Assembly (NCBI GenBank): GCA_023898465.1
Contig: CP060223.1
Span: 480,001-544,000 of the forward strand
Direction: 5' to 3'
DNA: 64,000 nucleotides
Source: Candidatus Nomurabacteria bacterium
GTDB taxonomy: Bacteria > Patescibacteriota > Patescibacteriia > HK-STAS-PATE-3
Within the stretch, counting starts at the first letter, position 1; the number at the start of each line of letters is the position of its first letter. The notes below the pieces were generated by a model that searched no databases, had not been told where the DNA came from, and was given only the letters and a program-made list of their open reading frames with translations. The translations under genes and the position numbers were made by a program. Shown one piece after another: positions 22,910-63,884 of the stretch.

Positions 22910-23182
22910 GCATAAAATAACGCGTCAATTGTTTCGGCAATGTTCAATTTAATATATTACCAAACTCCCTGGACTACCACGTTCAGGGAGAGCGCTTCTT
23001 CCGCGAAGGTGGTACTTCGCGGAATTGTAAAGGTGACTTTATTGCCCCCCCTCCCTTCCCTATTCCATGCACCGTCCAAGATAAATTCTTGGACTACGCG
23101 GTTATTATTTTCTCCTGCGTAGCGCAGGCGAAGAATTCATCTTCGCCATTCAGCATCGCTGGAGTTTATACAAAAACTTCAG

Positions 23183-23223
23183 GCAAAAGAAAGACGCCTG
23201 CACTCAAATGAGTAACAGGCGTC
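23183..23223 (-). terminator. intrinsic terminator of the lipoprotein operon
   Basis: GACGCCTG-N15-CAGGCGTC followed on the minus strand by TTTCTTTTG. Confidence 0.55.
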
Positions 23224-23263
23224 ATGGTGGTGAGTGAGTCGGGAAGATCATACTTCCTCCTCA

Positions 23264-23713
23264 CTACTGTCCGCGAACCGTGAAGTCCGGTCCGCCGTTG
23301 TTGTTGGTGCACACCGCGACGACCCAAGCGTACTTGCCCGTGAAACCGCGGACGGTTTCAACTTCGTAGATGCGCTCAGCCGTGATCGCCGGCACGTTGA
23401 TGGTGAAAGTACGAAACACACGATCACTGATCTGTGACTGATACACTTTGATAGTGTATCGCCCCTCGTTCAGGGTCATAGTCCCGTACTCATTGGGATG
23501 CACGGTCAGTCTTCGCGGCGGAGTACCGTCTTGCTCGTCCGCCGCTGCATGCCGAGTGATCTCGTACGACAAGGTGTAGTTCCAGTCGTTCGAGAAGATG
23601 CCTTCCGAACCTGCGAAATCCGGTCCCGTGAGCGTGAATGCACACCCAGAGAGGAGCGACGCTACGATGCCCAGAAGAGCAACGATAGCGAAGAAACGGT
23701 TGAACACCTGCAT
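23264..23713 (-). CDS. putative lipoprotein, unknown function
   Basis: Signal peptide with lipobox LLSGC. GC-rich codon usage. 149 aa. Confidence 0.55.
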   Translation of the reverse strand: MQVFNRFFAIVALLGIVASLLSGCAFTLTGPDFAGSEGIFSNDWNYTLSYEITRHAAADEQDGTPPRRLTVHPNEYGTMTLNEGRYTIKVYQSQISDRVFRTFTINVPAITAERIYEVETVRGFTGKYAWVVAVCTNNNGGPDFTVRGQ

Positions 23714-23719
23714 TGTTCA

Positions 23720-24142
23720 TTACCTCCCAATCACCACGCCAGCAGCGTAGCGATGGTTGTAGTAGCGGAAGCTCCGTCCTTGATATGGGACGAAGAACTT
23801 TCCGTCACGTGTCTTCTTCCCATCGACGTTGAAGGATGTCCAGAGATACTTGCCCTCCGGATACCACTTCACGAAAGTCGGACATGTTCCGTCCAACGTG
23901 AATTGGTCCAGAGGATTCCTGTCAGAATCGTAGACGATCACTCGTTGCGTGAAATCCCGAAGTGGACCAGTGTTGGCGAAGATGACTTCCCCGCCTCCAG
24001 TCGACTCCACCACCTCGTGTCCATGCGCGACAGGGTTGTCGCACACGAAAACTTCGTGACAGAAGCGAGCTGTCGGTCCGCAACCCGTGAGGAGGGTCAC
24101 GCCAGCAGTCAACAACATGATGACAAAGAGCGAGCGGTTCAT
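23720..24142 (-). CDS. putative lipoprotein, unknown function
   Basis: Signal peptide with lipobox LLTGC. SD GGAGGAAAGG upstream. 140 aa. Confidence 0.55.
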   Translation of the reverse strand: MNRSLFVIMLLTAGVTLLTGCGPTARFCHEVFVCDNPVAHGHEVVESTGGGEVIFANTGPLRDFTQRVIVYDSDRNPLDQFTLDGTCPTFVKWYPEGKYLWTSFNVDGKKTRDGKFFVPYQGRSFRYYNHRYAAGVVIGR

Positions 24143-24187
24143 TTTCCTTTCCTCCGTAGCTAGAGTGCTTCCAATTGTGAACAGAGC

Positions 24188-24216
24188 ATGATAGCATATT
24201 TTCTCTATTTTGTCAA
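24188..24216 (-). promoter_or_regulatory. sigma70 promoter TTGACA-N17-TATCAT driving the lipoprotein operon
   Basis: Read directly on the minus strand. Confidence 0.55.
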
Positions 24217-24316
24217 GAGGAGTAATAAATAACCTCCAACCGAAAGCTGAAGATGGCCATCTTCAGCTGCGAATACTATTGCCCATGCACTCCTCTACTT
24301 GCTACACTTCCCCTAC

Positions 24317-25693
24317 ATGGAACTCCAGCTATTCAACACACTGACACGACAGAAAGAAATATTTACTCAACCAGACCAGAGTCCGGTAAAAATGTATTCA
24401 TGCGGACCAACGGTGTATGGCTTCGCGCACATTGGTAATCTCCGCACCTATGTGTTTAGCGACCTCCTCCGCCGAACTCTTGAGTACAATGGTTTCAAAG
24501 TTGCCCAAGTCATGAACAGCACCGACGTTGGACATCTCACCGACGATGCTGATCAGGGAGAAGATAAAGTCGAGCAACAAGCCAAACGTGAAGCAAAAAG
24601 TGCGCTCGAGCTCACTCGTTCCTATGAGGAAGCCTTTCTTCATGATTTAGATGCCCTGCATATCGAACGCCCTACCCAATGGCTACGTGCGAGCGAACAC
24701 ATCCAAGAACAAATTGCCTTGATTCAACAACTTGAGGCAAAAGGGGTTACCTATCAGACTAGCGATGGAATTTATTATGACACCAGCACCTTCCCCCGCT
24801 ACGGCGAATTCGCCCGACTACATACGGCCGGACAACAGGAAGGCGCCCGCGTGCAAGTGAATACTGAGAAGCGTCATCCGACTGACTTTGCTCTGTGGAA
24901 GTTCAGTCCAGCTAACCAACAGCGCCAAATGGAATGGGGTTCTCCTTGGGGAGTTGGCTTCCCGGGCTGGCATCTAGAGTGTTCAGCTATGGTGATGAAA
25001 GCCTTTGGACCGACTGCTGATATTCACACCGGCGGTATTGATCATATTCCTGTCCACCATACGAATGAAATTGCCCAGAGCGAAGCAGTGACCGGCCAAG
25101 CGCTGGCCCGTTTCTGGCTGCATGGCGAATTCCTTATAATAGACGAGGGTCGTATGGGTAAATCTGAAGGAAATGCGCTTACCTTAAAAACACTGCAGGC
25201 AAAGGCCTTTGATCCTATCGCCTACCGCTTCTGGCTATTGCAAACTCATTATCGCACCAAGTTAAACTTTACCTGGGAAGCTCTCGAGGCAGCCCAGCGA
25301 GGTTGGCAAAACATGACTGCCGAAATAGAGCGTTGGGGCGCTATAGAGCCGGGACAAAGGAATGAAGATTTTGAGCAGCGCTTCCACGAAGCCATCAACA
25401 ATGATTTAGATCTGCCAAAATCTATGGCTATAACTTGGGAGTTGTTGCGCTCGGAAATACCTACCAATGATAAACTGGCCACCCTCTTAGGTTTTGATCG
25501 AGTTCTTGGACTAGGTATTGAAAGCATCCGCCCAATTACGCTGCCTGAGGAATTAAACACCTTATTACAAGAGCGCGAAACAGCCAGACAGGCAAAGGAC
25601 TGGGAAAAGGCGGATACGCTTCGTCAGCAACTTCTCGATGCTGGGTATGTAGTTGAGGATCGACCAAGCGGCGCTTTTGTCCGCCGAGCCTAA
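24317..25693 (+). CDS. cysS: cysteine--tRNA ligase
   Basis: MELQLFNTLTRQKEIF...MYSCGPTVYGFAHIGNLRTY (HIGH-type motif), WGVGFPGWHLECSAM, GKSEGN (KMSKS-type). I place the start at the ATG at 24317. Confidence 0.9.
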   Translation: MELQLFNTLTRQKEIFTQPDQSPVKMYSCGPTVYGFAHIGNLRTYVFSDLLRRTLEYNGFKVAQVMNSTDVGHLTDDADQGEDKVEQQAKREAKSALELTRSYEEAFLHDLDALHIERPTQWLRASEHIQEQIALIQQLEAKGVTYQTSDGIYYDTSTFPRYGEFARLHTAGQQEGARVQVNTEKRHPTDFALWKFSPANQQRQMEWGSPWGVGFPGWHLECSAMVMKAFGPTADIHTGGIDHIPVHHTNEIAQSEAVTGQALARFWLHGEFLIIDEGRMGKSEGNALTLKTLQAKAFDPIAYRFWLLQTHYRTKLNFTWEALEAAQRGWQNMTAEIERWGAIEPGQRNEDFEQRFHEAINNDLDLPKSMAITWELLRSEIPTNDKLATLLGFDRVLGLGIESIRPITLPEELNTLLQERETARQAKDWEKADTLRQQLLDAGYVVEDRPSGAFVRRA

Positions 25694-26068
25694 TTACACT
25701 GAGACAAAGCTTTTTGCATAGGTGATGGCTTCATCCATGCCGCCTTCGTATTTCACCACGTACTGATCAGCCACTTCCCTACCTGCTTGCATATCCACGC
25801 GTGAACATAGGGAGCTAAGGAGTATTAAGGGGATGTGCTTTGTACGCTGGTCAGCTTTAATGCAACGAGCAGAGGCAATTCCATTCATCACTGGCATAAC
25901 AATATCTGAAATTATCAGGTCCGGCTTTTCATTCATAACTATAGATACCGGATCAGCACTTGGGTTAGTAAAGTGTCGCACCTCAAAGCCAGCTTGGCGC
26001 AGACGCTGGCCAAACTTTTCTGCAAAAGCTGGGTCATCTTCAAAATGAAGTACTCGAGGTTTAGACAC
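25694..26068 (-). CDS. stand-alone response-regulator receiver domain protein
   Basis: 124 aa. DD pair (FEDD), phospho-acceptor DLIISDIVMP, conserved K near the C-terminus. Confidence 0.8.
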   Translation of the reverse strand: MSKPRVLHFEDDPAFAEKFGQRLRQAGFEVRHFTNPSADPVSIVMNEKPDLIISDIVMPVMNGIASARCIKADQRTKHIPLILLSSLCSRVDMQAGREVADQYVVKYEGGMDEAITYAKSFVSV

Positions 26069-26147
26069 AGAAGGAGTATAGCAAACTTTCTATATACTTA
26101 TGCTATAGTAAGACTGCTTAAATAATTGGATCATTTACGAGGGGAAA

Positions 26148-26834
26148 ATGAAAATACTACTCATCGAAGACAACCCAGAAATCCGTGAGTTTCTCAAGCC
26201 GGCTTTAGAAGCGGAGGCTTTTTCAGTTGATATTGCTGAGAATGGTAACATTGGTGCAAAAATGTCATGGGATCACACCTATGACTTGATTATTTTGGAC
26301 TACATGCTGCCGGATAAAAATGGCTGGGAAGTATGCCAAGAAATAAGAAATCGTGGAAATAAGGTACCTATTCTCGCACTTTCGGTGGTAAATGATACCG
26401 AAAAGAAAGTAGAATTTCTCAACTCAGGCGCTGATGACTATCTCACGAAACCTTTTTCCTTTAATGAATTATTAGCCAGAATTAGGGCACTTTTGCGTCG
26501 ACCCGATACTTTTGTGCACAATACACTGGCCGTTGGTGACCTTGAAATGGATCTCATTCAGCAAACAGTACGATGTGGGGGCCAAGAAGTATATCTAACT
26601 CGCAAAGAGTTTGAATTATTGGAGTATTTAATGCGAAACCCAGATCGTCCTTTATCCCGAGGAATGATTATTGAGCATGTCTGGGATATGGCAATTAATA
26701 CTTTTTCAAACACAATAGAAACGCATATTTTCAATTTGCGTCGGAAGCTCAATGAAAAAGCTTCGCGACAAATAATCGAAACACTCCCGGGTCGAGGTTA
26801 TAAAATAAGTTCAGTTTCCAAAATCACTTCTTAA
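26148..26834 (+). CDS. OmpR/PhoB-family response regulator
   Basis: REC domain (DLIILDYMLPDKNG) plus winged-helix (LTRKEFELLEYLMRNP...VWD...TIETHIFNLRRKL). Confidence 0.9.
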   Translation: MKILLIEDNPEIREFLKPALEAEAFSVDIAENGNIGAKMSWDHTYDLIILDYMLPDKNGWEVCQEIRNRGNKVPILALSVVNDTEKKVEFLNSGADDYLTKPFSFNELLARIRALLRRPDTFVHNTLAVGDLEMDLIQQTVRCGGQEVYLTRKEFELLEYLMRNPDRPLSRGMIIEHVWDMAINTFSNTIETHIFNLRRKLNEKASRQIIETLPGRGYKISSVSKITS

Positions 26835-27051
26835 GATAAAGTTAAGCAATTCTTTATCTCACCTGCTCTATAGTACATGTGCGCCTTGCTGGTCGACATT
26901 GCGCAGTAGTACAAATTTAATAGGAATAAGCCACATGAGCACCTTACTGGAGCAAATGCTCAACCAAGTTGAGACGCGGGGGGAATTGCAGAGCACCGAA
27001 ATTGCTCTGCAGCAAAGTGAGTTCCAGCCCTGGTCTCCCTGATAGCGCAAA

Positions 27052-30439: not shown

Positions 30440-30463
30440 AACTGTGAAAACTTCCTGGCGCTC

Positions 30464-36623: not shown

Positions 36624-37880
36624 CTATCGAATGTAGACGACCGCGCCTGTGCTAAAGGTGTTTATATCTTTACACGCCTGACCTGGAAAAACCTCAGCCC
36701 GTAATTTACGACTCTCCAGCATCTCTACCATAAAACATCCAGCTGAACTTGTTCCTGAACGCAGCTCCAGAGTGCTGCTCAAACTTGATCTATCCCAAAC
36801 TTGGCCATCAGCGTAATAGACTTGCTCGTAAAGGTCATAGGCTACCCGGCCGTTTTCTGGACTAATATCAACTGGCTTAGCAGCGTCGTGAGCAATAGTG
36901 AACTGTGAAGCGCCATCTGGCCAGTTACCTATTGAAATTACCGTAGCGCTAGGGTCGAGATGATCTGGAGCGATCGCGAGATGGGTAGTCCAATACGCAG
37001 ACGGATCATTGCCCGCATAACCATTTGTGGTCCCATCAGGATTCATCACAAACCAGGTGCCAATTAACCGTCCATCAATATCATAGTCAATCTTGCCGCT
37101 ACGTGGTTCAACTGTACGTAAATACTGGGTCAAAGCTAGGGAGCGAAGTTCTTCAGTGTAGTACGGCAGCGGATCAACAGTATGAATCTTCCACGATTCA
37201 CGCTCATAATGCTCCGGCACCACGAAGCCGCTAAGCTCGCTCTCTGTATCCCAAACAGCAAAATCGAGAGTCTGCCCGCCGATACTCCCTATACGTTGTC
37301 CAGCCTTCACAGGTAAATCAATACTATTCCCCTGCTGCTGATAGGCACTAAGTATATCAGGTGCTAAACCAGTGACTAAATCATAGTAGTAAAATAGATG
37401 ACAACTCATGCTGAATACTATCCGAAAGTCTGTCACGGTCTTGTTCGCATTTTGCCCCTGACCAGAGTGGGTACGCGTCCCTATATCAACAATCCGCGCA
37501 TCGGCCATTGCGTATACTGGATAGGCATCAATAGGTGAATCAAAAGGCTCGGGTGAGAAGTATTGATGATCAATTGGGGTGACGTGCCCACCGATCATTA
37601 ATCCGTATGGGATAATAAATCCAACATCGCTAGGGTCCATGGGATAATCGGTAAGCAAGGGTTTGTCGGTTCCCTGACAATGTCCATGACTTAATTCCTG
37701 ACCAGCTACATCAGCCGGCGTCCTCGCCTGCTCTTGTGTATTGATATTTTCTTCATTTTGCATTGAGGAGTTTTGATTTTGACTAACAGTATTGTCGTTA
37801 TTTCTACGAGTGAATAGCACAATAAGCACTGCCAGAAGAATGAGGACAGCGATGATGACGAGCGTCGCTACTTTTTTCAT
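36624..37880 (-). CDS. secreted/anchored protein with a degenerate M23/LytM-like core
   Basis: N-terminal TM helix. GGHVTPIDHQY...PVYAMADARIVDIG...VKAGQRIGSIGG resembles the M23 layout, but the HxH position reads LDF. Confidence 0.4.
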   Translation of the reverse strand: MKKVATLVIIAVLILLAVLIVLFTRRNNDNTVSQNQNSSMQNEENINTQEQARTPADVAGQELSHGHCQGTDKPLLTDYPMDPSDVGFIIPYGLMIGGHVTPIDHQYFSPEPFDSPIDAYPVYAMADARIVDIGTRTHSGQGQNANKTVTDFRIVFSMSCHLFYYYDLVTGLAPDILSAYQQQGNSIDLPVKAGQRIGSIGGQTLDFAVWDTESELSGFVVPEHYERESWKIHTVDPLPYYTEELRSLALTQYLRTVEPRSGKIDYDIDGRLIGTWFVMNPDGTTNGYAGNDPSAYWTTHLAIAPDHLDPSATVISIGNWPDGASQFTIAHDAAKPVDISPENGRVAYDLYEQVYYADGQVWDRSSLSSTLELRSGTSSAGCFMVEMLESRKLRAEVFPGQACKDINTFSTGAVVYIR

Positions 37881-37969
37881 ATGGGTAAGTATAGCATAGA
37901 AAAAATAGCTTACTCAGTATGAGTAGATTTTAATAGGCATTAAAAGGATTTTCGCTGTAAAATATCTCT

Positions 37970-38446
37970 TTACTGCCCTTGCTCGAAATCCTTCAGGATA
38001 CGCAAGTATTTTGCTTGAGTATCACTACCAATTTGTGGATGCGTAAAAACCGGCATTACACCGGTTATTGCTATGATATTTCTTACTTCATCAAAATAGA
38101 ATCCATCCAACGTTGCAATAAAGAGCCAAGAAGGATTCCAAGACTTAGCCATCCGTTTAGCATCTATAAGCACATATTCAGGACTTAGTTGTTTTTGATA
38201 TTTTACCTCTATCAATCTGACTTCGCTTGTTGCATGATCAATGACAGCGAAATCTGGCGCGGTACGTAAAATATTAACTGTTGGATTATCTTGTGAATAA
38301 CCCTGCTGGATAAGCTCAGGGATAATTTTTTCATACCCAAATTCGAGTACTGTAAATTGGCGTGATTCGCGAAACATTTGTGCAAATATCGTTTCAGCAA
38401 TTTTACCTTTAATGAGATTGTGAGTGAATTCTGTTGAGGTAGACAT
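37970..38446 (-). CDS. PD-(D/E)XK nuclease-fold protein (Hjc/endonuclease-like)
   Basis: GKIAETIF (E) ... APDFAVID (D) ... RLIEVKY (E-x-K) in the canonical order and spacing. 158 aa. Confidence 0.5.
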   Translation of the reverse strand: MSTSTEFTHNLIKGKIAETIFAQMFRESRQFTVLEFGYEKIIPELIQQGYSQDNPTVNILRTAPDFAVIDHATSEVRLIEVKYQKQLSPEYVLIDAKRMAKSWNPSWLFIATLDGFYFDEVRNIIAITGVMPVFTHPQIGSDTQAKYLRILKDFEQGQ

Positions 38447-38598
38447 TATTTTTTCTTAATAAACTTTTTCAACTTTACTTGAATGTAGGTTGCCGCAATA
38501 GTAAACAGAAGTATTATTCCAAAAGCAGGAAGAAATACTTTCAGCATTATTCCCATAAACCTACTTGTACCTTCAACAAGCTGAGGATCGGCAGGCAT
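38446..38598 (-). CDS. small membrane protein (50 aa; below the track cutoff)
   Basis: The ATG abuts the upstream stop (TAAATG) and its stop overlaps the next ATG (TAATG). One TM helix (VFLPAFGIILLFTIAATYI) and a Lys-rich tail. Confidence 0.4.
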   Translation of the reverse strand: MPADPQLVEGTSRFMGIMLKVFLPAFGIILLFTIAATYIQVKLKKFIKKK

Positions 38599-38784
38599 TT
38601 ATCTTGTTTTCTTCTTATAGCAGCTATAACAAAGCGAACGATCGCGGGAAATAACTGTACCACAACTCCGGCACTTTTTCGTGCCATACTTTTTTACACT
38701 CGAAGACTTTTTCTTAGTCTGGCATGAGTAGCACAGTGTATACGTTCCTGTTGTTTTTGTTCCACAGCGGCTGCATTTAGGCAT
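38599..38784 (-). CDS. double zinc-ribbon small protein (61 aa)
   Basis: I place the start at MPKCSRCG. Two CxxC...CxxC units (CSRC..CYSC; CRSC..CYSC), very basic. Confidence 0.5.
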   Translation of the reverse strand: MPKCSRCGTKTTGTYTLCYSCQTKKKSSSVKKYGTKKCRSCGTVISRDRSLCYSCYKKKTR

Positions 38785-39391: not shown

Positions 39392-39619
39392 CTAGGCCGC
39401 TCGTTGCTCAGTCCTCAGGATAGCAGAAGCACGACGATACGCTTTGTCTCGCACCGCCTTTGGTACATCCTGCTCTCTTAAGGCACCTTGAATCGAGCCT
39501 AGCTGCACCTCATTCCCCTTACGATAAAAGGTGAGCACAAAGCCTTCAGCGCCTATTTCCACTCGACCATGTAGACGATCAACCTCCAGCACCTCGGTCT
39601 CTGCATCTTGTTCACCCAT
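39392..39619 (-). CDS. small hypothetical protein (75 aa)
   Basis: I prefer the ATG at 39619 because it is preceded by AGGAGG-N5. The longer 161-aa track ORF would run through a structured, promoter-containing region. Confidence 0.45.
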   Translation of the reverse strand: MGEQDAETEVLEVDRLHGRVEIGAEGFVLTFYRKGNEVQLGSIQGALREQDVPKAVRDKAYRRASAILRTEQRAA

Positions 39620-39756
39620 ATGAGCCTCCTGGTCGGGAAAAAGCTCTTCTTGGATTGGTCGCATGTGTCTTTCACGCATATATATATTGTACGCCTCAAG
39701 CAGGAAAAGTAAAAGTAGTCTTGACGAGCCCAAGGCTCGGGGTTTATTATAGCGAC

Positions 39757-39971
39757 ACTTCTCAAGCCGACAGAGAAGTTGTCTCAGAATCCGTTTTGTC
39801 GGCACTCTCGCGTGAATGTTTCGCGGTTCATCGAGAGCGTAGAACGGCGATAGGCTGATGGGACCGATCCCACTCAAAAGCCGAAAAAAAACGGGATCCT
39901 GCCCCAGGCATCAATACTTGTCGCCCGAATTCCAATCGGGAAACATAGATGCGCTGGGGCTCCATTTTTTT
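39757..39971 (+). ncRNA. candidate structured RNA (~215 nt), unknown class
   Basis: TTGACG-N18-TATTAT at 39721-39750. Nested helices: CTCTCG/CGAGAG, TGGGA/TCCCA, CCGTTTT..TCGGC with GCCGA..AAAACGG, CCCCAG(39902)/CTGGGG(39954). Ends in U7 at 39965-39971. Confidence 0.35.
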
Positions 39972-39980
39972 ATAGATACC

Positions 39981-40008
39981 TAAAAGCCAGGAGCTGCCCT
40001 CTCCTGGC
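39981..40008 (-). terminator. intrinsic terminator after the 40035-41186 gene
   Basis: GCCAGGAG-N7-CTCCTGGC followed by TTTTAGG on the minus strand. Confidence 0.6.
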
Positions 40009-40034
40009 CTTTGAGGCTGAAAGGAGGAATGAGC

Positions 40035-41190: not shown

Positions 41191-41736
41191 TTACGAATAA
41201 GAGAGTTGTTCCATTTCCTTGCGTAAGGCTTGCAAAGCCCTATGTTTCAATACGCGCACATTGAGAGCACTGATCTGCATTACTTTTGCCACTTCACTTA
41301 TACTTAGATCCTCTCGATAAAGCATATGGAGCAGAGTTGCGTAGCGTTCAGGAAGGCGGGTTAAGGCTGATTCCATTTCCCGCTCCATTATTACATCTGG
41401 CATCTCATCCGGATCACTTGATAAAGTATGACTCACGCTCTCAATATCAACCTGGGTGCGTTGGCCACGATAATGATCAATCAAGCGGAAACGGGCAATT
41501 TGAAAAAGCCAGGTAGAGAATTTTGCATGTTTCTGCTCCTTATATCGGGGCAATGAGCGAATCATTTCAAGAAAAACAGTTTGGGTTAAATCCTCAGCTG
41601 TTTCCTGACTACTGACCCGCATAAGCAAGAAACGGAACACCCGGTCTCCGAAAAGGTGGAAAAGTTCGGCCACCCCTTCTTGATCCCCTTGTTGCGCTCT
41701 GGCGACGATTTCCTGTACTTGGCTTTCGTGTTGCAT
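41191..41736 (-). CDS. ECF-type sigma-70 family RNA polymerase sigma factor
   Basis: Region 2 (DLTQTVFLEMIRSL..Y....KFSTWLFQIARFRLIDHYR) and region 4 (ISEVAKVMQISALNVRVLKHRAL). Confidence 0.9.
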   Translation of the reverse strand: MQHESQVQEIVARAQQGDQEGVAELFHLFGDRVFRFLLMRVSSQETAEDLTQTVFLEMIRSLPRYKEQKHAKFSTWLFQIARFRLIDHYRGQRTQVDIESVSHTLSSDPDEMPDVIMEREMESALTRLPERYATLLHMLYREDLSISEVAKVMQISALNVRVLKHRALQALRKEMEQLSYS

Positions 41737-41798
41737 AGCGTATATTAGTATATCGGAAATAGGATTATTTTGTTACATCTACCAAGAAATGCTATTAC

Positions 41799-41827
41799 TT
41801 GACATTTTTTCATATCTAGTCTAGTAT
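41799..41827 (+). promoter_or_regulatory. sigma70 promoter TTGACA-N17-TAGTAT
   Basis: Read directly. Points into an ORF-free GC-rich segment. Confidence 0.5.
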
Positions 41828-41833
41828 ATGCAC

Positions 41834-42191
41834 TCGATGTTCATTAGAAATGAGAGAGAGGCGGGATGAGATAGGTGTCCCCCCAGACACCTCGCTACCT
41901 TCATACAGCGGTAGTTGCATCATCCCACTGCCCGAAGCGGCTCCCCACCCTTGTTACTACTTGTACTGGCTTCATCCCTAAGGATCCCCCGCCAGTCTGG
42001 TGCTGACATGTTCGGCGTCATATCCTTATGGTCTATTGGCTGCAAAGCTGATCACCTTTTGTGATGATGACTCACCGATGCTTCGGCTCAGATGCCTCTC
42101 TCTCCACCTACGCCTGCGCACCTGAGCACTCCCCCAGGCTCACTGCGCATGTGCCCCCGTCGTGTCGTTGTACCGACGGGGGTGCTTTTTT
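41834..42191 (+). ncRNA. candidate large structured RNA (~360 nt), unknown class
   Basis: No ORF of 60 aa or more on either strand between 41737 and 42232. An 11-nt perfect long-range complement GAGAGAGAGGC (41852-62) / GCCTCTCTCTC (42094-104). Several internal hairpins. Terminator CCCCCGTCG-N11-CGACGGGGG + U6 at 42154-42191. Confidence 0.5.
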
Positions 42192-42232
42192 ATAAAAAGA
42201 AATCCCCAGGCCGATTGGTCTGGGGATGAGAA

Positions 42233-42679
42233 CTAGAACTGTTGTGCTGAACGCATCCGATGAAGCGTGCTACACACCAGTCCAATACCAGAGCGACGCT
42301 CTACACAGAACTGATACACCCGTTGCGCCGCCATGAGCTTTTCATAGAGCGCCTGACCATGCTTAGTGGCTAGTTCGTTTCGCATCTCCCGGTCTAGACC
42401 TTGGTAATACGAACCAAGCAGCAGATAGCGCACTAGAAGCCACCCCAGTAACCCGGAGCTGAGCAGCATCGCTGTTAAAGCACCGGGCAGAGTCAGATAC
42501 CCGAGCAAATCCTCCAGTCTTGCCCAGTAGTACACTGCAACAAGCTCAAATAGCAGAAACGCTAGCGTGGCTATAGTTGACCCTATCCGGATAAACAGGC
42601 GCCACCTTTTCACTCTCTCGCACAACTCTAGAATCTCTTCTTCTTGAACACTGAGTTGCGCGTAGAGGAAATTCGACAT
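42233..42679 (-). CDS. GC-rich two-TM membrane protein, unknown function
   Basis: I place the start at MSNFLYAQ, preceded by GGGAGGTG. Terminator CCCCAG-N10-CTGGGG + U-run downstream. 66 nt downstream of the heliorhodopsin stop. Confidence 0.5.
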   Translation of the reverse strand: MSNFLYAQLSVQEEEILELCERVKRWRLFIRIGSTIATLAFLLFELVAVYYWARLEDLLGYLTLPGALTAMLLSSGLLGWLLVRYLLLGSYYQGLDREMRNELATKHGQALYEKLMAAQRVYQFCVERRSGIGLVCSTLHRMRSAQQF

Positions 42680-42745
42680 ATGCACCTCCCTCTTGCATAC
42701 CCAAAAGCAGTCTACACCCGCTGCACTGCAGGTCAAGCATTCAGG

Positions 42746-43528
42746 TTAAGGCCGGAGAGTACCGGAAAACATTTGCCAGGCTAGAGCTGATTTCGCCACC
42801 AGGGACAAAATCATATAGGCCTTTTCACCGTAGAGATAGTCCTGCCATTTCCCTATCTTCTTATACTGCAGGACCATGTTAATCGCGAAGATGTTAAAGG
42901 TGACAAAGATGGTGGCCACAATGAAATAAACAAAGGTAGGAATCTCCACTCCGGTCGACTGTACCGCGCCAATGAAGAAAGCAACAATGACCAGCCAGGG
43001 AATTAAGCCAGCCAAAACTCCTATCCAGTACGAAAGCCAATTCGTATGCTTGGTCGTCTGATTATGTACTTCCATCATCAAGCCCATGAGATTCATAATC
43101 GCATTCAAGGCAAACAGCGAAATGAGTAGCCAAAGATCGTACACACCACAAAGCATGGCAATAACTACAATCATAACTGACGAGGATAAGGCATACTCAG
43201 CCCAACGCAGCTTGTTGATGCCCTTTTTCAAATTCTCCTCATACCATTCCCGCAAAGGTCCGGCTAGAAGGAAATGCGCAAAAGCAGAAAGGAAGAGAAA
43301 GACCGCTACGGTGGGGCCTAAGCGTAAGTCAAACAAATGCTCAGGAAGTGGAGCTACACCAAAAACTGGATTATTTGGATCGATTTTCAGGTATGAAGTA
43401 ACAACTGGTAAAGATGAATTATTGCTTATCAAAACCATAATGACGCCTTGCACGAAGTGAAGGGCGGCCATTGACCAATTCCAGACTTGTAGTTTTTTTA
43501 ACTGCTCTTTTTGACTACGCATTTTCAT
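42746..43528 (-). CDS. heliorhodopsin
   Basis: 260 aa, 7 TM. RWAEYALSSSVMIVVIAMLCG and GEKAYMILSLVAKSALAWQMFSGTLRP closely match my recollection of heliorhodopsin 48C12 (RWVEYSLSSSVMIVLIAQICG; GERAYIVLSLVAKSALAWQIFSGTLIPA). This includes the Schiff-base Lys and the counterion Glu. Confidence 0.85.
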   Translation of the reverse strand: MKMRSQKEQLKKLQVWNWSMAALHFVQGVIMVLISNNSSLPVVTSYLKIDPNNPVFGVAPLPEHLFDLRLGPTVAVFLFLSAFAHFLLAGPLREWYEENLKKGINKLRWAEYALSSSVMIVVIAMLCGVYDLWLLISLFALNAIMNLMGLMMEVHNQTTKHTNWLSYWIGVLAGLIPWLVIVAFFIGAVQSTGVEIPTFVYFIVATIFVTFNIFAINMVLQYKKIGKWQDYLYGEKAYMILSLVAKSALAWQMFSGTLRP

Positions 43529-56905: not shown

Positions 56906-57017
56906 ATTTTTTCTTGCACTGTTTACAAGTTTTCACTGACTCAGTATAACAGAAATCTTTTTTTAGCCCAAAAAAACCAAAGTGGCATGGAAAGAAACAA
57001 TACGTTATACTGCTCGT

Positions 57018-57398
57018 ATGCATATTATTTTTCGTTGGATTCTTAACGCACTCGCCCTCCTCCTGGTCGCCTATCTCCTGCCTGGATTTGCGGTTGATTC
57101 TTTTTATGCCGCGCTTATTACCGCGCTTATCCTAGGCATCCTGAACGCGGTTATCCGACCGCTGCTCATCATCCTCACCCTGCCCGTTACCATCCTCACT
57201 CTCGGACTTTTCACCTTTGTGATTAATGCCCTGCTTATCTGGTTTGTAGCGAGCTTTGTGCAAGGATTTCAGGTTGATGGATTTGGACCTGCTTTCCTAG
57301 CTGGATTACTACTTTGGATTATTTCTTGGTTCACCAACGGACTTACAAAAAAGCGCAACACAAAACCAAAAGTGGAAGTATTAGGTCAACCTAAATAG
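57018..57398 (+). CDS. DUF360 / phage-holin-4-like membrane protein
   Basis: I place the start at MHIIFRW. 4 TM helices. The AVIRPLLIILTLPVTILTLGLFTFVINAL pattern is typical of the family (from memory). Confidence 0.65.
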   Translation: MHIIFRWILNALALLLVAYLLPGFAVDSFYAALITALILGILNAVIRPLLIILTLPVTILTLGLFTFVINALLIWFVASFVQGFQVDGFGPAFLAGLLLWIISWFTNGLTKKRNTKPKVEVLGQPK

Positions 57399-57404
57399 CC
57401 CTGC

Positions 57405-58886: not shown

Positions 58887-58963
58887 TCTTTACTTTTCTT
58901 GTAGAATGCGATAAGTATTGTACAGATTTTGGATAGGTCGCACATTAAAATGGAGGTAATCGG

Positions 58964-59563
58964 ATGTCGCTTATTCAGGCTCGTGTACACGAGCAAATAG
59001 CCTTCAGCAATCAAGCTGATTTCACACGACTACTGCAGCGCTATCTCGTCGCGGACCAAATCCAGCCGGGGCATCAGAACGGTACAGCTGAAGTCTCGGA
59101 AAGGCCGCGGGTGGTTCGTTTTCCTGGATGCCTGGTAGTGACGGCCGCCTATCGAAACCTCGCAGTTGGAGGGATCGACCGGTCAGACCTGCACAGACTG
59201 CATCACTTGCACGCATCACTTCGCGCCGAGCTGTATGAACCTGATGAGCTGGCCCGGGTTGGATTCTGGTCGCAGACTGATCCGGCTGCCGTCGTCACTC
59301 TCACAGCCCTGGGTGGCGGGATTCAAGAGGTTCGCTTCTTCGAATCCGAATGGCAAAGGTGCGATCAAATTCCACTCTTCTTCCAACGACTCCGTGAAGA
59401 GCATGGCGATGACGCAAATATCATCGTGCTAGAAGCGGCAGCTGCGAAGGAGATGCTCGAACTGGGCATCACGCCAAAGAGCTTGCAGTGTTTCTTGGTC
59501 CAGATCGATGCCCACCGGGTTTCTGTCGTCGACAACTTCATGCCAACTTTCGTGCCCAAGTAG
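58964..59563 (+). CDS. hypothetical protein (199 aa), GC-rich
   Basis: GGAGG SD 7 nt upstream. Followed by a clean terminator. No motif recognised. Confidence 0.5.
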   Translation: MSLIQARVHEQIAFSNQADFTRLLQRYLVADQIQPGHQNGTAEVSERPRVVRFPGCLVVTAAYRNLAVGGIDRSDLHRLHHLHASLRAELYEPDELARVGFWSQTDPAAVVTLTALGGGIQEVRFFESEWQRCDQIPLFFQRLREEHGDDANIIVLEAAAAKEMLELGITPKSLQCFLVQIDAHRVSVVDNFMPTFVPK

Positions 59564-59575
59564 GAGGATCTCCCA

Positions 59576-59607
59576 GGCCCTGAGGTAAACACTTCAGGGC
59601 CTTTTTT
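59576..59607 (+). terminator. intrinsic terminator
   Basis: GGCCCTGA-N10-TCAGGGCC + U6. Confidence 0.65.
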
Positions 59608-59621
59608 ATTTTACGTATGAC

Positions 59622-59649
59622 TTGACAAAAGCCCTCTTTTTAGTATACT
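59622..59649 (+). promoter_or_regulatory. sigma70 promoter TTGACA-N16-TATACT
   Basis: Read directly, ~70 nt upstream of the GTG start at 59719. Confidence 0.5.
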
Positions 59650-59718
59650 GGCCGGTCTAGAAATAGTAGTAGCTATCGAACGGAACGTATATTCACAAAG
59701 GGAAGAGGAGGCTCAAAC

Positions 59719-61161
59719 GTGGTGCAGAAGACTGCCACGGCTTGGGTCGTGGCATTCATTCTTCTGTTCTGCCACGCTCAAGCCTCGACTGCTACAGTCA
59801 CTCATTTCGTTTTTGGCATGCGCGGCAACGCGAATGTCGACGTGTGTGACAACGGCGACCTTCGCCAGTTTCACACCACGCCGGCAGGTGGACTCGTATT
59901 CACCAGTATGGGAGGTGGCGAATTCGAGATCGGTCTCGAGGGTCAAGTCAGCTGCAGTCGTGATGGAGGAGGTGGAGAAAACCTCATCCAAAACGGCGCT
60001 TTTGACCAGGGCACTTGCTCAGAATGGGAATTGGAGGACCCCAATGGACGCGCTGCAGCATCCTGTAGCAATGAGGGTCGCGTCACCGTGCAGAGTAGCG
60101 GACAATACTACGAAGTCCAGCTCAAGCAATCGATCCCGCTGATCAATGGTCAATGGTATCGTCTGAGCTTCGACGGCGACAGTAGCGTTCGCCACATCAT
60201 ACCGGTCGGAATTATCAATCCGGCCAGCTATGATTCGATCGGCCTCTGGGCTGATTGCGATCTGCACACCGATCGACGCAGCTTCGAATACCTTTTTCGC
60301 TCCAGTGAGACCATCTCTGATGCACGCTTCAGTTTCTACATTGGTGAACATCCGGCGACCTATCGTTTCGACAACGTAACGATAGTGCCGGTTGATCCCA
60401 GTGCAGACTGTTTCCGTGCTCCAGGTGAACTCATTGTGAACGGAGGGTTCGAGTGCGATCAGGTCTGCCAGCACGCTTGGCGATTCGAGGATCACTTTGG
60501 ACCCGGCTATGCTCTGTGCGATGCTGTGTCCCATAGTGGTGCTCACTCAGCCAAGCTACGACCAGCTCAAGCGGGTCAGTACTACGAAACGCAGTATCAG
60601 CAGCTTGTCACTGTCCAACAGGGACAACGCTATGAATTGCGTTTCTACGCCCGGACCAATCGTGACCCGCAGACTATTGTGGTCGAGCTGGTTGACCCAC
60701 AGAGCTTTGCGAACCGCGGACTCGTCTTTGGTCCCGTGCTCAACAGTAGCTGGACTGAGGTGCGACAAAGCTTCACTGCCAATCGTAGTGGTGTTGCTCG
60801 TCTCGGTTTTGCGGTTGGTAACTGGGACCCTGGTACTCCGGTCTGGATCGACGACGTCAGCTTGCGTCCGGTACTTAGCGTCGGAGGCGGTGACGCACAA
60901 AGCGCGACACCATCAGCCCTGGCCACCCAAGCGAACGCTGCAGTCTTTGCTCTAGAGCAACGAGCTGATGTTCGTATCAACGTCTTTGACGTGGGAGGAC
61001 GTCAAATTGCTGGCGAGTCTCGCTCCTTGTCTGCCGGGACTCATACCTACATCTGGGACGGATTGCTGCACAGCGGTGTCCGTGCTCCCAGCGGCATTTA
61101 CTTTGTCCAGGTCACCGGCGCTAGTGTCCATGCCATCAAACGCATTGTAATGGTGCGTTAG
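59719..61161 (+). CDS. secreted protein with two CBM4/9-like jelly-roll modules and a FlgD-Ig / T9SS type-A-like C-terminal domain
   Basis: Signal peptide. Duplicated NLIQNGAFDQG..EWE / ELIVNGGFECD...AWRFED openings with F.FY / LRFYAR and W(I)DDVS(L) endings. C-terminal RINVFDVGGRQI....LSAGTHTYIWDG......APSGIYFVQV........KRIVMVR. Confidence 0.65.
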   Translation: MVQKTATAWVVAFILLFCHAQASTATVTHFVFGMRGNANVDVCDNGDLRQFHTTPAGGLVFTSMGGGEFEIGLEGQVSCSRDGGGGENLIQNGAFDQGTCSEWELEDPNGRAAASCSNEGRVTVQSSGQYYEVQLKQSIPLINGQWYRLSFDGDSSVRHIIPVGIINPASYDSIGLWADCDLHTDRRSFEYLFRSSETISDARFSFYIGEHPATYRFDNVTIVPVDPSADCFRAPGELIVNGGFECDQVCQHAWRFEDHFGPGYALCDAVSHSGAHSAKLRPAQAGQYYETQYQQLVTVQQGQRYELRFYARTNRDPQTIVVELVDPQSFANRGLVFGPVLNSSWTEVRQSFTANRSGVARLGFAVGNWDPGTPVWIDDVSLRPVLSVGGGDAQSATPSALATQANAAVFALEQRADVRINVFDVGGRQIAGESRSLSAGTHTYIWDGLLHSGVRAPSGIYFVQVTGASVHAIKRIVMVR

Positions 61162-61193
61162 AGGCTGGAACCATGCGTCAACACATCTACAAC

Positions 61194-61230
61194 AGCGCCT
61201 GAAGAGATTTACTCTCTCAGGCGCTTTTTT
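61194..61230 (+). terminator. intrinsic terminator
   Basis: AGCGCCTGA..GAGA / TCTC..TCAGGCGCT + U6. Confidence 0.65.
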
Positions 61231-61287
61231 GTATATGAAAAGCCGCCAAAGTTCCGAAGAAGCTTGGCGGCGAGAGACGAGGAGGGA

Positions 61288-61611
61288 TCAGGCGCCCTCA
61301 GTACTGACCTCCTCCTTCCCGCAAAGATGCAGGATGAATGACAATAGCGTGAGGAACCCGAGGATCCCGCCTGCAATAAGCAGGAACCAGCGGCCGAGGT
61401 CTCCGAAGAAACCCCGATAGACTCCTTCGATGAAGGGACGATGACCCGTGCCTTCAAACACGAGTACCGTGGGGAATCCTCCCCAAAACATGAGGAGGGA
61501 GATGATCGCAAGAGTCGCCACCGACACACCCATGGCAAAGGGCGACAGAATGATCGCCAGTCCCATGTGCTTTCCGACCAGCTTGAGCAAACCCGTAAAC
61601 AAGCGTGCCAT
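61288..61611 (-). CDS. small 3-TM membrane protein, GC-rich
   Basis: I place the start at MARLFTG, with GAGGAA upstream. Promoter TTGACA-N17-TATTAT at 61684-61712. Terminator GCCGCCAAAG/CTTGGCGGC at 61242-61270 + U-run. Confidence 0.5.
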   Translation of the reverse strand: MARLFTGLLKLVGKHMGLAIILSPFAMGVSVATLAIISLLMFWGGFPTVLVFEGTGHRPFIEGVYRGFFGDLGRWFLLIAGGILGFLTLLSFILHLCGKEEVSTEGA

Positions 61612-61683
61612 AATAGTATTCCTCGTATGTACCGACCTCAAAAGGTCGAGTTTGAGTCAATGTACAAAACGTATCTGGGCAAT

Positions 61684-61712
61684 ATAATAGCACATTTCGT
61701 TTATTTTGTCAA
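61684..61712 (-). promoter_or_regulatory. sigma70 promoter TTGACA-N17-TATTAT
   Basis: Read directly on the minus strand. Confidence 0.5.
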
Positions 61713-61721
61713 TATATAAAG

Positions 61722-62996
61722 CTAAAATCTTGCTAATCTTGGCGAATTATCATGCAATACTGTGCTTGCTGCAATAGTTTTACGGAAGCCCACTCGCTCT
61801 TGCGCATGCTTCCGTACATTCCACATTGCTCCCCAACGCAACATATACGCACCATAACGCTCATGCACTCGATCAATCACTGCTTCAACAGCATCGTGAT
61901 TTACCTCGGGCCAAATCTTGAGCTGACCGCTCCTTGGGCGTAAGCGAAAAGTGCCTATGCCTAAAAAAGTAAGGAAGCGTCCATGAACTTCTGGTGCTAA
62001 CATATCCCAGGCCAATTGAAAAAGCTTTCGCCCTTCGCGTAGCCCATCACCTAACTTACGCTGTCCACCGTGTGAAGCGCCTTCAGCCATACGGGTATAT
62101 TCACTTGGCACACTGCGAGCCATTGCCCAGATGCCATGGGCTTCTAAGTTCTTCTGGCGCAATTCCCGAGCAGTCTTTTCGCAAAGCTTCATCAACACCG
62201 CTCGGTGAAAAGTGTGATCGCGCGTACGTTCACGCAAGACATGCGTATGTCCAATTGACTTCGGGTCTCGCTCCTCCTGCACACCGCCTAATTCAATCCC
62301 TTGCACATTTGCCCAGAGCTCATAGCCACGCACTCCGAGAGCCTCCATTAGATTAGTAACTGGATAGCGATAAAGATCCTCGAGAGTAAAAATACCTAAA
62401 GCATGCAGGCGACGTTCATAGCCCTTATTAATCCCCCAAGCCTCAGTCACTGGTCGGCCGGCCAAGTAGCTTGGCACCTGGCGCCGCTCAAGCACAACCG
62501 TCCCACCCTTTGGCGCAATATCAGAGGCGAACTTAGCTAACCAGCGAGTTGGTGCTACCCCAATGGAACACCGCAGCCACTCGCCCACCTCGCGAAAAAT
62601 ACGCTGACGAAAAGCCTCACCTATCTTCGCCACTTCATCAAGTGAATGGGCGTCACCAGTGAAATCAACAAAAGCCTCGTCAATTGAGTAAGGCTCGATA
62701 TCCTCAGAGTACTCAGCCATGATACGAAAAATTGCTTCAGTGGTGGAATGATACTTTGGTGGATCAACCTCTACCACCTTCAGGGCAGGATAAATGTGCA
62801 AACCATCCTTCACCCGCATACCAGTCACAATGCCTAACGCTTTTGCTTCTCGTGAAGTGGCAATCATGCAGCCTCCCGGCGCCATGGTGGCGGCAATGCC
62901 GACCGGCCGACCTCGCAACTTCGGATTCGCCTGCTGCTCGACTGAGGCGAAATACGAGTTCATATCGAAATGGAGAATGAGGCGAGAATGAGACAT
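61722..62996 (-). CDS. dinB: Y-family DNA polymerase IV
   Basis: ILHFDMNSYFASVEQ, SIDEAFVD catalytic motifs. 424 aa. Confidence 0.9.
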   Translation of the reverse strand: MSHSRLILHFDMNSYFASVEQQANPKLRGRPVGIAATMAPGGCMIATSREAKALGIVTGMRVKDGLHIYPALKVVEVDPPKYHSTTEAIFRIMAEYSEDIEPYSIDEAFVDFTGDAHSLDEVAKIGEAFRQRIFREVGEWLRCSIGVAPTRWLAKFASDIAPKGGTVVLERRQVPSYLAGRPVTEAWGINKGYERRLHALGIFTLEDLYRYPVTNLMEALGVRGYELWANVQGIELGGVQEERDPKSIGHTHVLRERTRDHTFHRAVLMKLCEKTARELRQKNLEAHGIWAMARSVPSEYTRMAEGASHGGQRKLGDGLREGRKLFQLAWDMLAPEVHGRFLTFLGIGTFRLRPRSGQLKIWPEVNHDAVEAVIDRVHERYGAYMLRWGAMWNVRKHAQERVGFRKTIAASTVLHDNSPRLARF

Positions 62997-63136
62997 ACGA
63001 TTACTTAACTAGATTGACAAAACAAGCTTATGGGTGGTAAGTAAGAGGACTGTCTGATGCCCCTGAATCGGGTGTCTGTGAGCACTTACTCACATCCGTG
63101 GTGGAGACAGTGTTCCTTACACAGGAGGTAAAACCT

Positions 63137-63655
63137 ATGAGTCGCAAGAGTGCTCACCAAACGAGGACTCCATCAGACATCAACGAAGAATCACCCTTTC
63201 TCAGAACGCTCTACTATTCCTTGATGAAGTGGAGTACGGTCCCGAGGAAAGAGATCGTGCCCGAACTACAGGACGAAATGAGACTGCGAGCTGAGACAAT
63301 GGGTCTCAGCGTCACTCTCTCCAGCGGCGTTCAGGGACCGAGCTACACCGACGTCGTGCTTGGGCTTTACGTCCTGCTGACCCGTAGCTACGTCGAGAGG
63401 TCTATCCAGAACATCATCTGGGGAGTCCTGGGTCACTGCACAAATCATCAGTTCGCCAAGTTCATCCGTTTGACCAACGCGCGGCACAACCCTAATCCCG
63501 AGAGCAGGACAAGGGCGATGAGGGCGCTCTATGAAATCGCTTCATTGGGCCATAGTCGCTGGCTCAATGTTGGGAAGTCCTGGCAACGGGGCGCGAGGTG
63601 GCGCATGAACGAGCTGATCAACTCTGGTCGCTTCGAGGCCCCAATCTATTGGTAA
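63137..63655 (+). CDS. hypothetical protein (172 aa), GC-rich
   Basis: I place the start at MSRKSAH, preceded by AGGAGG-N8. Terminator at 63667-63698. Confidence 0.5.
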   Translation: MSRKSAHQTRTPSDINEESPFLRTLYYSLMKWSTVPRKEIVPELQDEMRLRAETMGLSVTLSSGVQGPSYTDVVLGLYVLLTRSYVERSIQNIIWGVLGHCTNHQFAKFIRLTNARHNPNPESRTRAMRALYEIASLGHSRWLNVGKSWQRGARWRMNELINSGRFEAPIYW

Positions 63656-63666
63656 GGAAGCTACAT

Positions 63667-63698
63667 AGCCCAGACACTCCGGTGTGCTGGGCTTTTTT
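63667..63698 (+). terminator. intrinsic terminator (shared with the convergent minus-strand gene)
   Basis: AGCCCAG.CAC-tccg-GTG.GCTGGGCT + U6. Confidence 0.6.
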
Positions 63699-63884
63699 CT
63701 ACTTCACAAACTCCACCTTTTCACACTCACTGCAATACATAGGCTTCATCGCATGCGTCACAAAGGAAGGTAAAGCACGCATAGGCTTAGCGCATTGACT
63801 GCAGCGCTTTGTGCCCCGCTCCTGTTTTGTTTCTCGAATCGTACGCGGTGTCATATATTTTCGTTTGCCCTCCATAGACACCAT
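63699..63884 (-). CDS. small zinc-ribbon protein (61 aa)
   Basis: CSQC ... CSEC pair, basic N-terminus. Confidence 0.4.
   Translation of the reverse strand: MVSMEGKRKYMTPRTIRETKQERGTKRCSQCAKPMRALPSFVTHAMKPMYCSECEKVEFVK

Follow-up and report, generated by a model that had tools for sequence, protein, structure and literature searches.

The subject of this work is a stretch of 64,000 nucleotides (nt), hereafter the window, from Candidatus Nomurabacteria bacterium, a member of the Candidate Phyla Radiation (CPR), also known as Patescibacteria. It covers positions 480,001 to 544,000 of contig CP060223.1 (assembly GCA_023898465.1), part of a metagenome-assembled genome (MAG) of ~1.08 Mb with locus tags H6760_*. 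A preliminary description had reported in it five short islands rich in guanine and cytosine (GC), set between the genes of a poorer backbone: A (22960-24250), B (39392-39990), C (41850-42740), D (58890-61715) and E (63045-63700). The compositional anomaly is real, about half the size that was claimed, and present in four regions instead of five. With moderate confidence, we take the five islands to be a mixed collection of short units that are transcribed independently and whose GC-rich genes were transferred or allelically replaced from higher-GC Patescibacteria at different times. The GC-rich genes of A, D and E code for lipoproteins, for membrane proteins, for a secreted protein that binds glycans and for small orphans; they evolve fast or differ between relatives. 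Two strongly structured non-coding segments account for part of the GC excess.

Table 1. Coordinates of the features discussed, in window positions (aa, amino acids; SD, Shine-Dalgarno sequence; SD energies in kcal/mol; GC3, GC content at third codon positions; CDS, coding sequence; ORF, open reading frame; ncRNA, non-coding RNA)
Feature	Position	Strand	Signals and remarks
Island A, left spacer	22843..23263		ORF-free, hairpin-rich; between the lipoprotein operon and an 87-aa gene
Island A, gene 2, 149-aa lipoprotein (A149)	23264..23713	-	lipobox LLSGC (...VASLLSGC); GC3 0.70; SD GGGAGG
Island A, gene 1, 140-aa lipoprotein (A140)	23720..24142	-	lipobox LLTGC (...VTLLTGC); GC3 0.66; SD energy -9.5
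Island A, operon promoter-like site	24188..24216	-	TTGACA-N17-TATCAT with TG; 11/12 consensus match
Perfect 24-nt palindrome AGCTGAAGATGGCCATCTTCAGCT	24245..24268		~50 nt upstream of the CysS start; single copy in the window
Island B, 75-aa gene (B75; USN54028)	39392..39619	-	90 aa at NCBI, to 39664; from sequence reading and cluster look-up
Island C left, candidate structured ncRNA, ~360 nt	41799..42196	+	promoter, terminator, folding, orthologue in L011
Island C right, 148-aa membrane protein gene (C148; USN54031)	42233..42679	-	GC3 ~0.57; SD GGGAGG; terminator 42200-42228
Island D, gene 1, 199-aa orphan cytoplasmic protein (D199)	58964..59563	+	SD GGAGG; strong terminator 59575-59602
Island D, gene 2 (D480) with promoter	59622..61161 (CDS 59719-61161)	+	promoter TTGACA-N16-TATACT 59622-59649
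Island D, gene 3, 107-aa membrane protein (D107)	61288..61712 (CDS 61288-61611)	-	promoter TTGACA-N17-TATTAT 61712-61684; 11/12 match
DinB (DNA polymerase IV)	61722..62996	-	IMS and IMS_C domains; between D and E, outside the islands
Island E, entire spacer from DinB start to next gene's stop	62997..63707	+	terminator ~63670-63700
172-aa all-helical protein gene (E172), in island E	63137-63655	+	SD AGGAGG

Composition and codon usage

The window as a whole has a GC content of 45.6%, and within the limits given above the islands reach 52.6% (A), 50.3% (B), 53.4% (C), 53.5% (D) and 54.4% (E). The 60-68% of the preliminary description is correct for the single 60-nt lines that were counted and overstates the size of the effect about two-fold; lines of at least 60% GC number 34 of 1066 in the window, and many of them fall outside the islands. 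Its backbone range of 33-48% was likewise drawn from hand-picked lines. Among these are stretches such as the low-GC outliers at 1-1300, inside a PMT_2-type glycosyltransferase gene, and 37701-38700 (35-37%), whose distance from the mean equals that of the high-GC islands. When 600-nt windows are used, values above the mean plus two standard deviations are almost confined to A, C, D and E, with one further window in the DinB gene. Deviant tetranucleotide usage (1-kb windows below the mean minus two standard deviations) occurs solely at 23001-24750, 41751-42750, 59001-61500 and 62501-63750. Island B never exceeds two standard deviations in GC and is no tetranucleotide outlier. The deviant composition expected of a horizontally acquired island is thus found in A, C, D and E and is missing from B. 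GC stays raised for ~1.2 kb past the window end, as seen on an identical Logan contig.

The clearest signal separating island genes from the backbone is GC3, at 0.55-0.70 in island ORFs against 0.40±0.046 in the backbone. A149, A140, D199, D480, D107 and E172 have a codon usage in common (r ~0.5 among themselves, -0.4 to +0.3 with the backbone), C148 is ambiguous between the two types, and backbone-type usage is found in all 46 of the 46 backbone genes tested, including those for DinB and CysS. In the islands, C- and G-ending codons rise, rare AGG among them, and A- and T-ending codons fall. The largest component is a move to C-ending NNY codons (those ending in a pyrimidine), a coding-strand effect seen on both DNA strands. 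The effective number of codons (Nc) is 52.4 in the islands, where 57.8 is expected from GC3, and 54.2 against 57.3 in the backbone. Because this deficit is small and the same as that of the backbone, the weak bias argues for a compositional shift over translational selection. Expression-linked bias was represented by the chaperone genes of L017, a CPR relative whose CysS is just 62% identical; these retain TTT, ATT and AAA, and the correlation of their shift with that of the islands is only 0.17.

GC content varies widely within this CPR group. The contig L012 (GCA_040960375.1, JBFOMN010001671.1), whose extracytoplasmic function (ECF) sigma factor is 58% identical to that of the window, has 60.5% GC and a GC3 of 0.73-0.90, and its codon usage correlates with that of the islands at r 0.69 and with that of the backbone at r -0.40. 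Higher-GC members of the same group therefore exist and are plausible donors. In a survey of 125 Patescibacteria genomes, hundreds of islands and transferred genes were found, mostly exchanged within the phylum (PMC12455944). The sole annotated relative of E172 comes from a Ca. Magasanikbacteria MAG (39% identity). Taken together, the codon match with L012, this relative and the published survey make other higher-GC Patescibacteria likelier donors than the high-GC host that had been suggested at first. A scan of GTDB genomes with MalQ returned only relatives at 40% and 29%, with no sister genome among the matches listed.

The islands in related genomes

Comparison with relatives separates the islands from one another. 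Island E and C148 are missing from relatives that carry the neighbouring genes, whereas island D and the genes of A have counterparts at the same place.

The genes of island A are ancestral residents of a conserved gene block, since the same block in the same order and orientation (lipoprotein, lipoprotein, spacer, 87-aa gene, AAA ATPase) is found in L017. There, 1487-1963 encodes a homologue of A140 (33% identity, E 5e-15) and 1975-2418 one of A149 (23%, E 2e-6), with the lipoboxes ...LLISGC and ...FTSVGC. Both island proteins have the signal peptide and L-x-x-C lipobox of a lipoprotein; A149 is annotated as USN54009. The view that the islands were inserted into intergenic gaps accordingly does not hold for A. 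Between the window and its strain variants L009 and L010, the A149 and A140 genes differ by 2.2% and 6.6% of nt, respectively, against ~1% in their neighbours, which makes A140 the most variable gene between the co-occurring strains. The idea that A149 and A140 are paralogues was considered and rejected, their likeness being confined to the signal peptide.

About a third of island A is structured non-coding DNA. The left spacer holds the operon terminator (~23200-23230), several near-perfect hairpins of 8-10 bp and, on the + strand, the C-rich tract CCCCCCCTCCCTTCCCT, with the promoter of the 87-aa gene at its low end. Its folding z-score is -6 to -7.6 on both strands, and it shows 0-1 mismatch in 421 nt (0-0.24%) to L009 and L010. 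The syntenic spacer of L017 is likewise hairpin-rich (z -5.95). Sequence conservation of the whole spacer with L017 was rejected, as it is significant only in the promoter of the neighbouring 87-aa gene. The spacer has no match in Rfam 15, and a permissive scan of 22800-23300 remained at chance level (E >=0.4, far below gathering thresholds). A tiny ORF with a strong SD, MIFPTHSPP (23222-23263, - strand), stands directly past the A149 stop and before the operon terminator; the same arrangement of strong SD and tiny ORF (MFPLTPT) occurs in L017 at 2419-2455 (+).

Next to MalQ, at the corresponding junction, island D also occurs in L008, a contig from a different study that stands for a strain of ~85% identity. 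Its three genes differ in how closely they are kept. D480, a secreted protein of 480 aa, has two carbohydrate-binding modules of the CBM_4_9 type and a C-terminal domain resembling FlgD-Ig and sorting domains of the type IX secretion system (T9SS), as judged from Pfam and NCBIfam, although the T9SS-tail scores fall under the curated cut-offs. It is 94.8% identical in aa to its L008 counterpart, with 86 synonymous and 25 nonsynonymous codon changes, a pattern that points to a real gene under purifying selection. Its GTG start at 59719 and SD (energy -11.9 kcal/mol) are conserved in L008 as well. A homology search with D480 gave no close homologue, the best match having 35% identity over 31% of the query. 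D199 is 64% identical in aa to its L008 orthologue, with differences skewed to third positions, and has no Pfam, PHROG or PADLOC match. The gene found at the position of D107 in L008 has only 29% aa identity.

Between D and E lies the gene for DinB, whose codon usage agrees with the backbone (r 0.69) and hardly with the islands (r 0.15). It has no SD and is 94.6% identical in aa in L008. DinB is native, so D and E are separate units flanking it, and a single foreign block of 6.3 kb composed of D, DinB and E was rejected. In L008, the 727-nt stretch of island E is replaced by an unrelated 358 nt without a gene. The E172 family comprises 17 representative clusters among 1.84 billion proteins and has a conserved core, which speaks for a real gene; its profile has weak ARM/HEAT-like similarity only when compared with the PDB and Pfam. 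Single-sequence AlphaFold2 models were unusable (mean predicted local distance difference test 36 for D199 and 43 for E172). Scans of viral contigs with E172, D480 and D199 gave no match, nor did PHROGs and PADLOC for any of the eight island proteins. A 132-aa ORF past island E has one weak match to an uncharacterised PHROG family (E 0.0026).

Island C joins two unlike halves. About half of it is structured non-coding DNA that is conserved in the relative L011, whose sigma factor is 76% identical. The C148 gene is absent there, the heliorhodopsin and sigma genes of L011 being parted only by a 461-nt spacer that bears the RNA discussed below. Among backbone genes, the heliorhodopsin gene beside island C (42746-43528, - strand) stands out by its GC3 of 0.51, the highest, and its codon-usage fit of 0.34, the lowest. 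It also has a strong G-rich SD-like site and may itself be an older acquisition.

Island B is of another kind. B75 has the promoter TTTACT-N16-TACAAT (39713-39686), an AGGAGG SD and a terminator (39382-39359), and the upstream part of the island, 39880-40034, is the terminator region of the sigma/anti-sigma operon. The codon usage of B75 is backbone-like (r 0.39 with the backbone against -0.01 with the island set), and we regard it as a native-looking gene.

The remaining genes of the window form a backbone that includes CysS, DinB, MalQ, MetK, the ECF sigma/anti-sigma pair, heliorhodopsin, a copper ATPase, an 1806-aa LVIVD/fn3 protein and a TrwB/VirD4-like ATPase. The last of these, at 18239-20581 (-), has a paralogue at ~64.7-67.9 kb in the extension of the window (L002 5820-9011); the first copy lies ~2.4 kb to the left of island A, the second directly right of the D/E region. 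A DUF8128 gene follows the second copy, and in L017 a DUF8128 gene also adjoins the lipoprotein pair. The gene for tRNA-Gln at 14914-14987, far from every island, is the sole Rfam or ARAGORN match in the window, and the 218-aa protein encoded next to it (14033-14689, -) matches Host_attach / baeRF family 12 (release-factor-like) domains.

Shine-Dalgarno use and a candidate RNA gene

The islands were first described as self-contained cassettes of promoter, SD and terminator, and this largely holds: they are mono- or bicistronic units with promoter-like sites, strong SDs and hairpin terminators of their own. Over the window as a whole, promoter-like and terminator-like sites are no more frequent than expected by chance. 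However, of the four sites that match the sigma-70 consensus at 11 of 12 positions, three are in A and D. The promoter of the A operon and that of D107 (61684-61712) are 83% alike over 29 nt.

The separation is sharpest for the SD. For seven of the eight genes in the islands, the SD-anti-SD energy lies between -9.5 and -13.2 kcal/mol (-11.5 for A149), while the median of 51 backbone genes is -2.1, and only 2% of these reach -8, compared with 1.8% of random positions (Mann-Whitney p 8e-6, or 3e-5 when the best start among 40 codons is allowed for each backbone gene). Besides the island genes, heliorhodopsin and the 132-aa gene just past the window are strongly SD-led. Relatives show a similar picture: in L012, too, the backbone for the most part lacks SDs and a few small genes are SD-led, DnaK, HSP20 and the A149-like gene of L017 are SD-led, and the D genes of L008 retain their SDs. 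Because SDs lead such genes in L017 and are kept in L008, SD use characterises a minority class of genes in this lineage and, taken alone, is no sign of foreign DNA. SD lead and codon shift are also separable, since B75 is SD-led with native codons.

A backbone with SD energies no better than random recalls the SD-poor translation of Bacteroidota and of those Parcubacteria that lack an anti-SD; the anti-SD motif was found in just 48% of Parcubacteria (PMC9297842; Tsurumaki et al., 2022). What differs from these regimes is that a minority of genes, in this genome as in its relatives, do have strong canonical SDs, DnaK and HSP20 of L017 among them. The anti-SD is therefore probably present in this genome.

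The left half of island C contains what we propose as a candidate RNA gene, conserved and native, and GC-rich because it is structured. It runs divergently from the ECF sigma gene. A promoter at 41799-41827 (TTGACA-N17-TAGTAT, 10/12 match) is followed by a predicted transcript of ~41836-42196 ending in an intrinsic terminator (~42153-42195). The minimum free energy of folding is -140.2 kcal/mol, compared with -106.1±4.6 in shuffled sequences (z -7.3), and the orthologue in L011 (2110-2467, - strand) reaches z -8.65. Kept between the two are the promoter, the long helix that closes the structure (GAGAGAGGC/CCTCTCTCC), a loop of sequence CTTCGGC, the position of the terminator and the overall architecture. 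In 18 of 48 consensus pairs, both sides have changed and still pair, although two sequences are too few for a statistical test. Both copies consist of 31-32% C with several C-runs, and no ORF is common to them. Of the general features expected of an ncRNA gene, the candidate has its own promoter and terminator, a marked folding z-score and no conserved ORF. There is no match in Rfam 15 (a permissive scan of 41700-42300 was at chance level, with E >=0.4, far below gathering thresholds), and nhmmer found no further copies of this segment or of the structured segment of A. A scan of metagenomes with a gapped pattern of the RNA gave three matches, in unrelated high-GC contigs, which were rejected as chance.

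Several known RNAs offer comparisons, among them the C-rich small RNAs of the RsaE/RoxS type in Firmicutes and the large structured ncRNAs OLE, GOLLD, ROOL and raiA. The candidate resembles them in being a stand-alone unit from promoter to terminator, highly structured, C-rich with C-runs in predicted loops, and conserved in a relative. However, RsaE and RoxS are shorter than its ~360 nt, and the candidate stands outside Rfam with two diverged copies only.

These observations allow a wider and more speculative proposal, to which we give a low probability. Two expression regimes would exist side by side, an SD-independent core and a small set of stand-alone accessory genes for surface and secreted proteins, SD-led, GC3-rich and with consensus promoters, which would be exchanged among Patescibacteria without an integrase. 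The island-C RNA, perhaps together with the C-rich spacer of A, would then act as a regulatory RNA not described before, its C-runs pairing with the GGAGG sites of the SD-led subset alone.

Origin of the islands

How could such units have come to stand between native genes? Under the transfer reading that we favour, the GC-rich genes would be drawn from a flexible pool exchanged among Patescibacteria and would have entered at different times, taken up as DNA and then integrated by homologous or illegitimate recombination without the help of a dedicated integrase. The gain of E and C148 here, or their loss elsewhere, would be so recent that relatives still differ in having them, and island D would be older than the split from the L008 strain. 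In island A, a divergent allele richer in GC probably took the place of the older sequence at an ancestral lipoprotein locus. The strong promoters, SDs and terminators would belong to a class of stand-alone SD-led genes that relatives also possess, and would not be a foreign signature. Acquisition at several sites from a high-GC donor, one of the explanations offered in the preliminary description, thus remains the best account of the proteins of A, D and E and possibly of C148, given their shared GC-shifted codon usage and the absence of E from L008 and of C148 from L011. As a description of all five islands it needs correction, for they are heterogeneous, A is ancestral, and the left parts of C and A are non-coding.

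Several points weigh against this reading. No donor was identified, and in Pfam, homology, PHROG and PADLOC searches the island proteins are near-orphans. The evidence for transfer consists of composition and patchy distribution, a codon usage like that of L012 is to be expected from any high-GC donor, and the base of comparison is ~73 kb of genome. The A genes are syntenic in L017, so that acquisition in A requires the extra assumption of allelic replacement, and their L017 orthologues are themselves somewhat enriched in C at third positions (0.33 vs 0.21), a hint of a gene-specific property. Finally, island genes combine strong SDs with consensus promoters and SDs mark DnaK and HSP20 in L017, so high expression could contribute.

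The last point leads to the first alternative, in which the islands are native, highly expressed genes and their preference for C-ending codons results from translational selection. It accounts well for the SD energies of seven of the eight genes, for the location of three of the four best promoter matches, for the SDs of the L017 chaperones and lipoprotein orthologue, for a main shift that follows the coding strand on both strands, and for the ancestry of the A genes. Nevertheless, we consider it unlikely. The codon bias is weak, with the same Nc deficit as in the backbone, G-ending codons including AGG rise too, and the chaperones of L017 hardly share the island shift. Moreover, E and C148 are dispensable in relatives, and B75 is SD-led with native codons.

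We think it rather improbable that the donor was a high-GC host or neighbour outside the CPR, for example of the Actinomycetota or of the Fibrobacterota-Chlorobiota-Bacteroidota (FCB) group. A GC3 of 0.55-0.70 together with SD-led genes is usual in many bacteria outside the CPR, the C-terminal domain of D480 is of a kind common in secreted proteins of the FCB group, and some phylogenetically diverse donors have been reported (PMC12455944). However, no homologue of D480 was found outside the lineage and its T9SS tail scores below the cut-offs, the one annotated relative of E172 is Magasanikbacterial, the A family occurs in the CPR relative L017, and the codon usage of the islands is matched within the group by L012 at 60.5% GC.

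An unrecognised passenger-cassette mechanism had also been proposed, that is, an integrase-free system that places promoter-SD-gene-terminator modules at intergenic sites, possibly by targeting palindromic hairpins. The islands are indeed compact self-contained units between genes, and the likeness of the A and D107 promoters fits such a system. So does the occurrence of one palindrome both at the right edge of A and in the E-less allele of L008, as does the fact that short-read (Logan) contigs of the source runs start or end exactly at the island edges 58877 (two runs), 24142 and 24219. All the same, we judge the mechanism very unlikely. The ORFs scanned with Pfam yielded no domain of an integrase, transposase or recombinase, a repeat search of the window returned no direct or inverted repeats bracketing any island, and no motif is shared at the island boundaries, in keeping with the negative findings already recorded for integrases, transposases and both kinds of repeat. 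The difference between E and L008 is the replacement of a whole spacer and not a precise insertion, the A genes are ancestral, and half of C is a conserved RNA. Nor do GAAGA-loop-TCTTC hairpins qualify as insertion targets, as they are not enriched (2 matches against 0.5 expected, equalled in 12 of 100 shuffles), and for this reason the palindrome is not counted as evidence of a target site. It remains an unexplained side observation, perhaps an operator or a hairpin. Near-identical palindromes of 22-24 nt (GCTGAAGATGGCCATCTTCAGC and symmetric variants) lie in L008 at 4862-4889, upstream of DinB within the DNA that replaces island E, and in L017 at ~2705-2732, as a symmetric variant in the spacer of the lipoprotein operon.

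Known mobile units provide no closer model. The mobility hallmarks that belong to the general concept of the genomic island (Hsiao et al., 2005), namely integrase or transposase, tRNA anchor and flanking repeats, were not found here. Without a bracketing repeat pair there are neither the terminal inverted repeats nor the target-site duplications of insertion sequences and miniature inverted-repeat transposable elements. Integron gene cassettes are likewise small single-gene units between genes that lack mobility genes of their own. Those cassettes, however, are promoterless, carry attC and are arrayed next to IntI, whereas the islands are dispersed, have their own promoters and terminators, and show no repeated attC-like site at their ends and no integrase. 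The nearest likeness is to the islets and transferred orphan genes of Patescibacteria, which share atypical GC, codon and tetranucleotide usage, hypothetical, surface and secreted products, patchiness among relatives and a likely exchange within the phylum (PMC12455944). Unlike known islets, the present units are tiny (0.6-2.8 kb, 1-3 genes) and lack an anchoring tRNA, an integrase and repeats at their flanks. Moreover, A is no insertion but an ancestral locus of atypical composition, and structured non-coding DNA contributes to the signal.

The last alternative, chimerism, would have fragments of other organisms spliced into the MAG, and independent contigs contradict it for most junctions. 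L004 spans heliorhodopsin, C and sigma at 99.9% identity; L001 and L002 (100%) and L007 (99.99%) span D, DinB and E and continue 9 kb past the window; L009 and L010, 98% strain variants, run from the backbone into the left part of A; and L008 spans MalQ, D and DinB at 85-90%. The check covered most island edges, the A/CysS junction (24220-24300) and island B lying outside the spanning contigs. Since L008 crosses MalQ-D-DinB, the contig ends at island edges suggest branching of the assembly graph at strain level rather than mis-joins. Although the genome is metagenome-assembled, contigs of the same runs break at some edges, and the A/CysS junction and B have no independent spanning contig, splicing is hardly credible with the other junctions intact and the A genes in the same block in L017.

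What, then, do the islands contribute? The claim of GC islands is in itself minor, as islets of orphan genes and exchange within the Patescibacteria are already documented, and this is one more example with no new mechanism. A caution can be added, in that GC counted on single lines exaggerated the effect and islands that looked alike proved to be of four kinds: an ancestral operon that is hypervariable, genes of recent gain or loss, a native small gene and a structured RNA. Of greater interest are the split in SD use and the unclassified RNA of ~360 nt. If confirmed, an SD-less backbone beside SD-led accessory genes would bear on how translation starts in Parcubacteria. Likewise, a conserved structured RNA without an Rfam family would matter more if it were confirmed, since hardly any work exists on the ncRNAs of this lineage.

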